A stretch of DNA of 15,587 nucleotides from Promethearchaeota archaeon (lineage in GTDB: Archaea > Asgardarchaeota > Lokiarchaeia > Sigyniarchaeales > SOKP01), in the NCBI GenBank assembly GCA_004524535.1, contig SDNY01000086.1, positions 1-15,587 of the forward strand. The letters run 5' to 3'. Within the stretch, counting starts at the first letter, position 1, and each line of letters starts with the position of its first letter. The position numbers were made by a program, and so were the translations under genes. Under the pieces are notes generated by a model. It saw only the letters and a program-made list of their open reading frames with translations, was not told where the DNA came from and did no database searches. This document shows, in pieces, positions 1,444-15,514 of this stretch.

Positions 1444-2214
1444 ATGGTGCTTGAAAAACAAAATGGACCTCAAAATGAAAAATTAGTAAAAATCGTGTGT
1501 CCTATTTGTAAAACTGAAAAAAAATTAACAATTTCAGGGTCAATTCTCAGTACATCAGGAAATTTAACTACAATATCAATTCAAAAAAATGAGATTTGCG
1601 AACATCATTTTCAAGTCTTTATTGATAGAGACTTTAAAGTTAGAGGGTATCAAAAAGTTGATTATGAAATAGACACAGTAAAAAAACTTCCTAAAGGCGA
1701 ATTTTTTATTAAATTAATACTTGTTGGGGATTATCAAGTGGGGAAATCTGCAATTATAAAAAGATTTATTGATAATACCTTTGATGAGGCATATTTACCA
1801 ACACTCCAACTGAAAATTTCAAAAAAAATATTAAAGTTTGGAGAATCAACCGCTAACCTTGTAATTTGGGATGTGGGCGGTCAAGCTATTAGTATGTCCT
1901 CCTATCGAGATCGTTTTTATGAAGGAGCACAATCAGCTATAATTGTAGTGGATAGAACTCGACCAGAAACATTAGAACATGTTGAAAGATGGTATAAAGA
2001 CACCAATAGAGCAATCCAACATAAAATTCCATATATGTTGGTTGGAAATAAATCAGATTTAAACAATGATGTTGTTGTGCAGAAACAAGATTTAGAGGAT
2101 AAGGCTAAAGAGTTCGGTTTAAATTATATAATCACATCAGCTAAGACAGGTGAAAATATTAATGATGCATTTTCAAATTTAACTTATAGATATCTCGAGG
2201 CCCAATTTTCTTAG
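1444..2214 (+). CDS. Rab/Ras-superfamily small GTPase with an N-terminal CxxC...CxHH (putative Zn-binding) domain
   Basis: G1 GDYQVGKS, G2 YLPT, G3 WDVGGQ, G4 NKSD, G5 SAK. N-terminal CPIC (aa 19-22) and CEHH (aa 52-55). No C-terminal prenylation Cys. GTGA lies 5 nt upstream of the ATG. Confidence 0.9.
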   Translation: MVLEKQNGPQNEKLVKIVCPICKTEKKLTISGSILSTSGNLTTISIQKNEICEHHFQVFIDRDFKVRGYQKVDYEIDTVKKLPKGEFFIKLILVGDYQVGKSAIIKRFIDNTFDEAYLPTLQLKISKKILKFGESTANLVIWDVGGQAISMSSYRDRFYEGAQSAIIVVDRTRPETLEHVERWYKDTNRAIQHKIPYMLVGNKSDLNNDVVVQKQDLEDKAKEFGLNYIITSAKTGENINDAFSNLTYRYLEAQFS

Positions 2215-2502
2215 AAAACTTAAAAATAGAACTCAAAAGTTAACTCTTTTTATCTTTTTTTAATATTTTTAATAATTTTAATAACTTAAAGAGATTAAAA
2301 AAAAAAGATATGATTACCGTTTTAAATTAGCGGAAGACCTTTTGGAGGACATTAAATCTTTTTCTAAAAAAATAAACTTAGATTAAATAGTAATTAATTA
2401 TGTGCTAAACACATAAAAAAAGTGAAAAAACATCATGACTAGATACATCAATTTTTTTTAGGTATTGACATTTTGATGTTGAAATTCCAACAACTTGAGA
2501 TC

Positions 2503-2515
2503 AAAAAAAAAAAAA
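2503..2515 (-). terminator. Oligo-T terminator candidate for cdhD
   Basis: A13 on + strand (T13 on -) about 40 nt downstream of the cdhD stop. Archaeal intrinsic terminators are U-rich. Confidence 0.45.
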
Positions 2516-2552
2516 GAATTATAATAAAATTTATAAAAAAATAAAATTTGAA

Positions 2553-3737
2553 TCAACGCTTCAAATTTGCGGAAGCCCAATCGTAATATCCTTTATCATC
2601 CATAACTTTTGGTATCTCTGCAAAAAATTGTGCTGTGATATCCTTCACGTGCTTTGCCGCTATTGGATGGAACATCATTGCAAGATCTAATCCTACCAAA
2701 GATAAGCATAATGCATTAATGACTTCCCATATTGGGCCTCGATACTGTCTTAATCCCCATTCAGGAGCTTGCTTTTCGCTCATCCATGCCTCACGAGCAC
2801 CCCACGCGTTTGTAGTACCTCCACTGATTGGATAAGCTAAATCTTTTTCGCCTAAAAGTCCAGCAATGCGCATTCTTTGGTAAATACTAAAGGAATACTC
2901 CATACCATAGCCTAATGTAGCACAGGTAGGGTCCATTACTATGCGATTTGGCGGAAGTCCTAACTCTATAGCGTCTTTATTCATTTTAATTTGATTATTA
3001 AGGTCTAAACTCGTCCACAGGAGACAATTATGATCGTATTTAACAGCTAATGGGATTTAATGGCAAATTGGGAAATCCAATTCGCATACATCTTCCCATG
3101 TAGCTTTATCTGCAGCAGAGAGCATTAAAACTTCGCTTTCAGTGGCTGCAGCGGTAGCTTTAAACATTTCGACATCTTTTTCTTTATTTCCAGAGCATCC
3201 AATTATTACAGGAACATCAACTGCTTGAAGAATTTCTTCTAAATACCTTACAGACTGACTAACTGGTGCGTCTCCCATAGCAGGGTCGATTTCTAATGAA
3301 TGAAATGTGATCGACTCAGCTCCAAACTTATTTACAGCAAATTTTGCCCATTCAGCAGGATGTCCTAAGACATCTCCATATTCTTGTTTGATTGGCTTTG
3401 GAAGCATCATTTTTGACCCCATATCAAACACATCGTAGGTTACCAGAGGAGGATGGGGATTTCTTTTATCAAGTCCTAAAAAGTTGTAAAATGGAGGTAC
3501 TTTTTCACCGCCAATTGTACAAGTTTTTCCGTTTGATCGAATGAATTGGATTGTTTCGATTTCTCCAGGAAAATTTATATCAAGCGAAAATTTTGTAGGC
3601 GTCCATTCAGCTTTTCCGAGCTTTGGAATTCCAACAGCCCCGGCTGCTGTTGATACGATGCTAGGTAATACTTGAAATTCTAAATAATCGGCTACTAGAT
3701 CTACGTCCACAAGTTCAAGTTCTTCGGTATCTTTCAT
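2553..3737 (-). CDS. cdhD: Acetyl-CoA decarbonylase/synthase (CODH/ACS) delta subunit (corrinoid Fe-S protein small subunit); intron-containing, join(3087..3737, 2553..3056), 384 aa spliced
   Basis: ORFs 3057-3737 and 2553-2984 are in the same frame and are the N- and C-terminal parts of CdhD (IGGEK.PPFY, DVFD, PAEWAK, VDVPVIIGCSGN.EKD; RIVMDPT..LGYGMEYS, TNAWGAREAW, GPIWE, MMFHP). Removing 3057-3086 gives a continuous ...SAADKATWEDV|IPLAVKYDHNCLLWTSLDLNNQIKMNK. The true start may be ATT at 3776. Confidence 0.9.
3057..3086 (-). other. 30-nt BHB-type intron in cdhD mRNA
   Basis: Minus-strand RNA: UGGGAA GAUG UA|U GCGAAUUGG AUUUC CCAAUUUGC CAUU AA|A UCCCA. Central helix GAUG/CAUU, bulges UAU and AAA, 9-bp intron stem, exon helices AUGGGA/UCCCAU and AGCUA/UAGCU. 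The intron ends in an in-frame UAA. Confidence 0.85.
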
Positions 3738-3971
3738 TAATTCTGCTAATTTCTTACTAAGATCTTCGAAAGAAATTTTACATCACGTTATATTTCGTTT
3801 TTTAATATTTAAATTGGTAAAACTATAAATTTAATTATTGAAATTAATAATGATTTAAATACATAGCGCGACGAAATTAGTCATTTAAGTTCAAAAATAT
3901 TAAAGAATTAAAGAGAAAATTTTATCAATCTGATCGCTATTCGAAGAAATCCTTCATTATTATATTTTCAC

Positions 3972-14239: not shown

Positions 14240-15514
14240 TTATTTCTTTTCTTTTTCCAATTTCTTTTTGATTAAAAAACCCATTTTGCTCTGAAGTCCA
14301 AACAGAGGAATAAAACCATAACTTAAATTTTGATTAAAGGTACTAGCTGTTTCATAAGTTGCTAAGTTCATATCATATATTCCATAAGGAGATTCCCTTG
14401 CTACAACCTCTGCGCTTCCTTTAAATAATTTTACTTTAACGCTACCAGTTACTTTTTTGTTTATTTCATTTATAAAAGCATCTAATGCATCTTTTAAAGG
14501 ATCAACCCATAATCCCTCATAAGCTAACTCAGACCATCTCTGATCTACCATGTTTTTGAAGGAATTTTCTTGCTTAGTACATACATATTTCTCAAGATCT
14601 TTATGCGCTTTAATAAGCATTAATGCTGCAGGAACTTCATAAGTTTCTCTTGATTTTAATCCAATGGCTCGATCTTCCATGTGTTCTATTCTTCCAACAC
14701 CATGCTTACATCCTAAATCGTGTAATGTTCTTAATAAGTCAATACTACTCATCTTTTCCCCATTTAAACCTACTGGAACTCCTTCTTCAAAATTAATAGT
14801 TATATATTCAGGCTCATTGGGAGCCTTCTCAGGAGCAATTGTCCATTCTCTCGAATCTTCAGGCGGTTCAATTTCCGGGTGTTCTAAAATATCACATTCT
14901 GCACTTCTTCCAAAAAGATTCTCATCAATGCTGTATTTCTTATATTTATTGACTGGAATACCATGTCTTTCTGCGTATTTGACTTCCTCATCTCGCCCCA
15001 TATTCCATTCAATTAAGGGTTGTAATACCTCGATTTCTGGAGCGTACGCATTTGCTGTAATATTAATTCTAATCTGATCGTTTCCTTTCCCAGTACACCC
15101 ATGTGCTACTACGGAAATTCCTTCCTTTTTAGCAATTTTAATTGCTTCTATTGCAATTAAAGGTCTCCCTACGGCAGTGCTTAACGGATATATCCCTTGA
15201 TATAACCCATTGGCTTTAATTGTAGGAAAAACATAGTCTTTTACAAATTTTTCTTTTAAATCTACTGTGAAATGTTTTACCGCACCTAATTTATACGCTT
15301 TTTCTTCGATTTCTTCAAACCTTGTTGGATCAGCAAATTCTTGACCTAAATCAGCTGTAAATGTATAGATTTTGGCGCTATATGTTTCTTGAAGCCACTT
15401 AATCATGCAGGAAGTGTTTGATCATACATACATCAATTGTATATATTCTAATCCTCCTGAATACATTAATAAAATCTTATCGTATTTATCCTTTTTGGGT
15501 CCTAATTGATTCAT
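14240..15514 (-). CDS. argG: Argininosuccinate synthase; intron-containing, join(15448..15514, 14240..15417), 414 aa spliced
   Basis: The body has YPLSTA.GRP, HGCTGKGNDQ.R, YSIDENL.GRS.E, GLKSRE.YE.P. The ORF-track protein lacks the N-terminal PP-loop. ATG 15514 reads MNQLGPKKDKYDKILLMYSGGL, and removing 15418-15447 restores YSGGLDTSCMIKWL. Confidence 0.93.
15418..15447 (-). other. 30-nt BHB-type intron in argG mRNA
   Basis: Minus-strand RNA: CAGGAG GAUU AG|A AUAUAUACA AUUGA UGUAUGUAU GAUC AA|A CACUUCCUG. Central helix GAUU/GAUC, bulges AGA and AAA, 9-bp intron stem with one G-U, exon helix CAGGA/UCCUG. In-frame UGA at 15424-15422. Confidence 0.88.

Follow-up and report, generated by a model that had tools for sequence, protein, structure and literature searches.

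A probable bulge-helix-bulge mini-intron in the cdhD gene of a Promethearchaeota archaeon, and comparable inserts in other protein-coding genes

Pre-mRNA introns in cbf5 of Crenarchaeota are said to have been described by Watanabe in 2002 and Yoshinari in 2006. In HAC1/XBP1, a very short intron within coding sequence is cut at stem-loops by a non-spliceosomal enzyme, the ends are joined by RtcB, and translation is altered. In the available passages of PMC2738675 (Yokobori 2009), the cbf5 introns have the bulge-helix-bulge (BHB) form, are linked to hetero-oligomeric EndA, and are given as the sole confirmed archaeal case of pre-mRNA introns, which the available text of PMC7714728 words as 'one mRNA'; the latter also describes a Haloferax volcanii mRNA that is cut by EndA in vivo and in vitro. 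The accessible parts of PMC5435141 and PMC8718801 mention unconventional mRNA splicing of HAC1/XBP1, and those of PMC8211752 describe translational bypassing (T4 gene 60, and the mitochondrial byps elements of Magnusiomyces). Here, a 30-nucleotide (nt) insert at positions 3086..3057, probably an archaeal BHB intron in the cdhD pre-mRNA, was analysed in a 15,587-nt stretch of DNA from a Promethearchaeota archaeon (the window, to whose coordinates all positions refer unless a contig is named). The window is contig C8 of genome G000 (3.66 Mb, 30% G+C, completeness estimated at 99%); labels such as G008 and G011 denote related genomes, C denotes contigs, and L denotes loci.

The gene, which serves core carbon fixation, is divided into two open reading frames (ORFs) in the same frame, separated by 30 nt ending in a stop codon, as the first-pass annotation of this DNA had described:

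cdhD, 3737..2553, minus strand: CdhD gene interrupted by 30 nt ending in TAA
cdhD exon 1, 3087..3737, minus strand: 217 codons, from the ATG at 3737 to GAT GTA; Pfam CdhD positions 7-138
Proposed BHB mini-intron, 3057..3086, minus strand: 30 nt in frame, terminal TAA
cdhD exon 2, 2553..3056, minus strand: 167 codons plus TGA, starting ATC CCA TTA; Pfam CdhD positions 138-227

The insert reads TGC GAA TTG GAT TTC CCA ATT TGC CAT TAA, in the frame of both exons, and its removal leaves 1155 nt encoding a CdhD of 384 amino acids (aa), with ATWEDV joined to IPLAVK at the junction. The two halves match successive parts of the Pfam CdhD profile (PF03599), and the only other PF03599 match in G000 is a separate gene on contig C53 with a full-length profile. 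When the read-through protein was used as the query, with X in place of the stop, 724 matches were obtained, of which the 120 listed are 383-397 aa long, and 14 sequences picked among those 120 were aligned. Precisely the ten codons CELDFPICH* are missing from 14 of 14 aligned homologues, the flanks are invariant, and no further gap or stop was found in cdhD in this alignment. The comparison with homologues, proposed as a check by the first-pass annotation, thus leaves no gap once the 30 nt are removed; together with the fold described below, it bears out the claimed exact excision and 384-aa product, and the claim that the gene has no other lesion also holds.

The insert is present in the DNA: when the run that probably supplied the sequence was assembled independently, the insert was recovered at a depth of 53 with 0 differences. 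A second sample of the same study contains a relative with 32 differences in 767 nt that is exactly 30 nt shorter. No second copy of the insert 30-mer was found in G000 within 6 substitutions, the 23-mer hairpin had 0 exact matches in two public collections (metagenome contigs and species genomes), no target-site duplication or direct repeat flanks the insert, and Rfam gave no match at E <= 1 on 2500-3800.

For the RNA corresponding to 3115..3030, the BHB is both the minimum-energy and the centroid structure of RNAfold, and the minimum-energy fold is the structure that the first-pass annotation had drawn. The fold has an energy of -26.6 kcal/mol (z = -4.41), and 0 of 200 shuffled sequences fold as well. 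Its parts are as follows:

Central helix H, 5' strand, 3089..3092, minus strand: GAUG, exon; pairs with 3062..3059
Central helix H, 3' strand, 3059..3062, minus strand: CAUU, intron
Bulge 1 (U A / U), 3086..3088, minus strand: predicted 5' cut between 3087 and 3086
Bulge 2 (A A / A), 3056..3058, minus strand: predicted 3' cut between 3057 and 3056
Inner helix h', 3063..3085, minus strand: GCGAAUUGG / CCAAUUUGC, 9 base pairs (bp) including one G-U; closes the loop AUUUC
Outer helix h, 5' strand, 3094..3105, minus strand: AGCUA, unpaired C, AUGGGA; exon 1
Outer helix h, 3' strand, 3045..3055, minus strand: UCCCAU then UAGCU; exon 2

The intron accordingly begins with a single nt of bulge 1, continues through a 9-bp stem with a 5-nt loop and the 4-nt 3' strand of the central helix, finishes with 2 nt belonging to bulge 2, and is enclosed by an exon-exon outer helix of 5+6 bp, with a central helix of 4 bp and the bulges UAU and AAA. 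When the BHB cutting rule is applied computationally, as described in the accessible passages of bioRxiv 10.64898/2026.10.13.758758 and PMC5829648, cuts after the second nt of each bulge excise exactly 3086..3057. This cut position is the only one that restores the conserved sequence, bar an equivalent slide by 1 nt.

Inserts at the same codon boundary of cdhD were found in 12 further contigs (8 metagenomic, 4 from species genomes), using a degenerate pattern with 27-34 extra bases at that boundary; these inserts are 29-31 nt long, and the exons around them are 74-94% identical to those of G000. On the alignment of the resulting 13 sequences (G000 and 12 contigs, 12 of them distinct), the G000 structure is paired in 91.3% of 287 cells, against 79.7 ± 1.4 in shuffles (0/500 reach this value). 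Covariation scores 0.400, compared with 0.174 after shuffling (0/500) and no more than 0.086 when partners are moved by 1-3 columns. In the central helix, every pair forms in all of the distinct sequences (12/12, 100%); its third pair (columns 19-49: AU 7, UA 3, GC 1, UG 1) links the third base of an Asp/Glu codon with an intron base. Across the 13 sequences, 7 of the 9 inner-helix pairs vary on both sides, and RNAalifold run without a supplied structure recovers the outer helices, the 4-bp helix, the 3-nt 3' bulge, and the inner stem. Twelve of the 13 inserts end in AA. Five of them contain an in-frame stop, two shift the frame (29 or 31 nt), and six are open, and the encoded peptides are unrelated; because stops, frame shifts, and open frames are mixed in this way, the cdhD inserts are, as judged from their sequences, free of coding constraint.

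A second BHB intron, of 36 nt, was seen in cdhD of other organisms (L167, L168, L169, L173, L176), about 52 codons downstream of the first, between PTCAT and LGYGMEY. In L165, the insert near that site is a different one and cannot be solved under the strict BHB rule.

An insert of this kind could also be kept in the mRNA while ribosomes hop over it, by programmed translational bypassing. The cdhD inserts resemble byps, which are 27-55 nt long, in size, hairpin, position in conserved coding sequence, and patchy distribution, but the take-off codon GTA is the last insert triplet in 0 of 13 inserts, and the codon after take-off is TGC, AGA, AGC, or AGT and never a stop. Moreover, the conserved feature is complementarity between the exon end and the 3' segment of the intron, not identity, and the exon-exon pairing and the two 3-nt bulges play no part in hopping, making bypassing a very unlikely explanation.

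Among 40 related genomes, cdhD is present in 32, an internal stop occurs in G000 only, and all 19 relatives' loci examined there (19/19) are uninterrupted; G008, the closest relative searched (96% protein identity), lacks it. The ratio of non-synonymous to synonymous substitution rates versus G008 is 0.069 for the whole of cdhD and 0.028 for exon 2, and, with two outgroups, 14 synonymous versus 1 non-synonymous change were assigned to the G000 branch in exon 2. By this substitution pattern, the part of cdhD behind the stop remains under protein-level purifying selection. The outer helix has 11 of 11 pairs in G000 versus 7-10 of 11 in 16 intron-less relatives (one mis-registered row dropped), a weak indication that G000-specific synonymous changes built it; the site was self-complementary already before those changes.

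Comparable inserts were found in other genes of G000. Structure-only searches were mostly noise, and therefore homology-validated candidates alone were counted as mini-introns. The first-pass annotation had called the cdhD insert the second mini-intron, rightly, as argG of the same window has the other (15447..15418). The candidates are:

argG mini-intron, 15418..15447, minus strand: 30 nt, 1+9+5+9+4+2 layout as in cdhD, in-frame TGA
rpoA1, contig C17, 309-338: 30 nt; Pfam profile 73/74 continuous across the junction
MoxR ATPase, contig C26, 5940-5968: 29 nt; Pfam profile 88/89 continuous across the junction
Elp3, contig C98, 11116-11146: 31 nt; 133/134 in 6ia8_A, contiguous in 9/9 chains
LsrF-like aldolase, contig C16, 3517-3548: 32 nt; 252/254 in 3gkf_O, split codon between
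cdhA, contig C100, 12004-12033: 30 nt; absent from G008
BcrAD ATPase, contig C65, 33272-33300: probable case only
POR-gamma, contig C189, 15035-15064: probable case only

For argG (14240-15514), excision restores the SGGL-D-TS motif, and the insert corresponds to a 10-residue gap versus solved ArgG structures. The insert occurs at the same site in G008 and in G011, which belongs to another genus (76% protein identity), and 21 other genomes are without it; its changes in G008/G011 comprise one compensatory pair (A-U to G-C) and three wobble changes, with identical exon flanks. For rpoA1, the boundary GHFGH/IELARP is occupied in 6 of 30 genomes by inserts of 30 nt (G000 L105, G021 L109, G006 L111, G010 L112), 50 nt (G020 L128), and 40 nt (G023 L130). 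The sequences of these inserts are unrelated, and each central helix matches its own exon, with exon/intron strands that covary (GGUC/GGCU, GGGC/GUCU, GGAC/GUCU, GGGC/GCCC). For cdhA, inserts were seen in five genomes (including L148 of G007, L152 of G010, L153 of G019, and L159 of G016), at three sites inside a ten-codon stretch at the N-terminal Cys motif; G007 has two introns, and the inserts of G010, G019, and G016 are 31 nt long. In rpoA1, argG, cdhA, and cdhD of 11 genomes, cutting by the canonical rule recovers the exact conserved peptide for 13 of the 15 insert-bearing sequences; it fails for an insert whose stem contains a single mismatch and for a gene carrying two introns. Cutting by this rule also leaves Pfam or PDB matches without a break in MoxR (29 nt), Elp3 (31 nt), and the aldolase (32 nt). 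In-frame stops in the G000 mini-introns are TAA (cdhD, cdhA), TGA (argG), and TAG (rpoA1).

The textbook BHB motif calls for neither of two regularities seen in the mini-introns: almost every one has AA at its 3' end (3' bulge A-A-N), and a length of 30 nt is much more frequent than any other. In POR-gamma, the N-terminal glycine-rich motif seems to be missing from exon 1, and an additional upstream break is possible. A GH57 family gene of G008 (contig C1, about 112034-112063; L087/L088) carries 30 inserted nt that form a hairpin, include an in-frame TAA, and are missing from G000; there, the canonical BHB register would excise 28 nt instead of 30. Next to cdhD in the window lies a gene for a Ras/Roc/Arf-family small GTPase (256 aa, 1444-2214, plus strand), and cdhD sits apart from the remaining cdh genes of G000. 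This GTPase gene and the organisms named for the nearest CdhD proteins put G000 among the Asgard archaea.

A strict hBHBh' scan of G000 (both strands, 119 spacings) gave 27,847 matches, about 3e-5 per position and spacing; 143 of these merge ORFs, 33 of them over 60 nt or less. The cdhD match has by a wide margin the lowest energy of the 33 short ORF-merging matches (-26.6; runner-up -19.3), and cdhD is also the strongest local fold among 517 single in-frame stops between open stretches in G000; the cdhD structure thus goes well beyond chance. A relaxed scan gave 7,526 matches and 206 ORF-merging candidates, mostly noise. After filtering of the relaxed scan by codon usage, the canonical cut offsets were not enriched (25, versus 16-33 at shifts of 1-2 nt), and this filter discarded cdhD itself. 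Candidates were rejected on inspection at C44:39162-39194 (a boundary between ABC ATPase and permease), in C81 (a PIN gene begins within the supposed intron), in C118, C82, C138, and C164 (gene boundaries), in EF-1alpha of C57 (intact in another frame), and in C154 and G008C5:20760; those of C76, C101, and C189 were unsettled on inspection. An indel census against the first 270 kb of G008 showed 29 indels of 20-45 nt, three of which break long ORFs, namely cdhD and cdhA (G000) and the 30-nt GH57 insert (G008). In a further 153 kb of the G008 comparison (423 kb in total), no ORF-breaking indel was found.

The occupied rpoA1 boundary is also relevant to the possibility that cdhD is a dead or dying pseudogene and its insert a neutral palindromic element or replication error. 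The in-frame stop lies in a single-copy gene, the closest relative searched is without the insert, and the 30-mer is unique in the genome, all of which speaks for this possibility. Nevertheless, cdhD has no other lesion, exon 2 has accumulated almost exclusively synonymous changes on the G000 branch, the insert has no target-site duplication, inserts persist in the 12 contigs across 74-94% exon identity with structure-preserving changes, and a similar insert occurs in rpoA1, a gene that cannot be dispensable. Decay of cdhD is therefore highly improbable.

That the two halves serve as separate polypeptides of a split gene (226 aa and about 143-167 aa) is hardly credible; the two ORFs are on the same strand and such genes are known in archaea, but the break interrupts a stretch of invariant columns, the second half offers no start codon until 24 codons past the break, so that invariant residues would be deleted, and neither the 29- and 31-nt inserts nor the open in-frame versions at the site fit. 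Translation of the insert, by stop readthrough or recoding, into a CdhD with a 10-residue loop would suit the six open homologous inserts, yet it is extremely unlikely, as two of the 13 inserts change the reading frame, the RNA pairs covary whereas the encoded peptides are unrelated, and the differing stops among the G000 mini-introns (TAA, TGA, and TAG) are explained by no single recoded or reassigned codon. Group I and group II self-splicing introns, whose ribozyme cores have hundreds of nt, were ruled out by the 30-nt length and the lack of an Rfam match, and a scar of a transposable element or miniature inverted-repeat transposable element (MITE) was ruled out by the unique 30-mer and the lack of a target-site duplication.

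The machinery that a BHB intron would need is encoded in G000. Two EndA paralogues were found (C100:30773-31378 and C84:30333-30938), each of 201 aa with PF01974 and PF02778 and 29% mutually identical, the second without the His that we take to be catalytic, together with one RtcB gene (PF01139) on C101. Aragorn reported only 12 tRNA genes in G000, 8 of them intron-bearing, despite the estimated completeness, and most tRNA genes of G000 are probably too interrupted for recognition. These few and intron-rich calls agree with the heavily interrupted tRNA genes of some Asgard archaea described in the passages found of a preprint (bioRxiv 10.64898/2026.10.13.758758). For Asgard archaea, the available text of PMC5829648 describes an (alpha-beta)2 EndA with a loop tied to broad substrate range.

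RNA and DNA were compared as assembled contigs of runs X1, X5, X6, and X14. Contigs lacking the 30 nt in X14 (RNA) and X5 (DNA) were considered as spliced products and rejected, as they are about 4% or more divergent from G000 and represent insert-less relatives. In X6, two RNA contigs, of which one matches exon 1 at 99% identity, end at 3088, a single nt away from where the 5' cut is predicted. These ends, from one study, could be due to chance, a branch of the assembly graph, or a cleavage intermediate, and were not counted as evidence.

Several observations weigh against a BHB intron in cdhD. In the fold, A3093 is unpaired opposite the 3' bulge, producing a 1x3 internal loop and no pure bulge. 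The strict BHB rule, which demands that the inner stem begin at the bulge and run for 4 bp or more without a break, solves just 4 of the 13 cdhD inserts; the remaining 9 are mismatched at the foot of that stem and represent a relaxed form. The six open inserts are translatable in principle as a 10-residue loop, and none of the RNA contigs of the compared runs covers or bridges 3057-3086. Among the 40 relatives the insert is restricted to G000, and it is therefore dispensable for the gene. Archaeal transcription and translation are thought to be coupled, so ribosomes could reach the stop before splicing.

Set against these points, the intron reading of the first-pass annotation is supported by the inserts at the same site, their covariation and freedom from coding constraint, and the selection on exon 2, and is further backed by the same architecture in essential genes and by the presence of EndA and RtcB; from these we infer splicing itself, both that the RNA is cut and ligated in the cell and when this happens with respect to translation. 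In the proposed mechanism, GAUG at the end of exon 1 would pair with CAUU of the intron into the 4-bp central helix, flanked by the two 3-nt bulges, the 9-bp intron hairpin, and the 11-bp exon-exon helix. The splicing endonuclease, probably a heterotetramer of both EndA paralogues, would cut after the second nt of each bulge, RtcB would ligate the exons and probably circularise the intron, and the joined mRNA would encode the uninterrupted 384-aa CdhD. Beyond cdhD, we lean towards a family-wide, fast-turnover population of mini-introns of about 30 nt in protein genes, processed by EndA and RtcB, in which the same boundaries are re-occupied by unrelated inserts and which would include those of RNA polymerase A', CdhA, CdhD, ArgG, and Elp3.

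Gene callers will report cdhD, cdhA, argG, and rpoA1 as fragments or pseudogenes, and metabolic reconstructions of Asgard archaea, for example of the presence or absence of the Wood-Ljungdahl pathway, can therefore be wrong. If such a population of mini-introns is real, mRNA would be routinely spliced by the tRNA-splicing machinery in the closest prokaryotic relatives of eukaryotes, and the cells would have to hold back translation until the intron is gone, or else put up with truncated products or make use of them; splicing of mRNA that depends on RNA shape, so near to eukaryotes, bears on the separation of transcription and translation. Several of the mini-intron sites are common to, or re-used across, genera, and the stereotyped lengths and AA ends offer a testable system for the precise arrival and loss of introns. 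No mRNA introns of Asgard archaea were found in the full-text literature searched, outside which lie most subscription journals and supplements, so that a prior description is possible; in the passages found of bioRxiv 10.64898/2026.10.13.758758, 'mRNA' occurs 0 times.

Compared with known systems, bypass elements are likewise short hairpin inserts in conserved genes that are annotated as breaks, but they need matching take-off and landing triplets, which the cdhD inserts have in 0 of 13 cases, and they stay in the RNA. The Haloferax mRNA differs from cdhD in being a single EndA substrate that the available text of PMC7714728 does not describe as an intron interrupting a reading frame. The proposed cdhD splicing shares with HAC1/XBP1 a very short intron in coding sequence, a non-spliceosomal endonuclease acting at stem-loops, and joining by RtcB, and differs in the use of EndA instead of Ire1; HAC1/XBP1 splicing is also stress-regulated and confined to one gene. 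With the BHB introns of archaeal tRNA, the mini-introns share the motif and the enzymes, an exon that supplies half of the motif, and repeated gain at permissive sites, whereas the host RNA is an mRNA, so that frame and timing relative to translation matter. A parallel in a protein-coding gene is cbf5, also a BHB intron with a patchy distribution of gain and loss, removed by the tRNA splicing endonuclease, as the cdhD insert presumably is. Unlike cbf5, the one gene family in which the literature found places archaeal mRNA BHB introns, the mini-introns described here occupy at least 7 genes of one genome, in an Asgard host; their length is stereotyped, near 30 nt, and their 3' end is AA.

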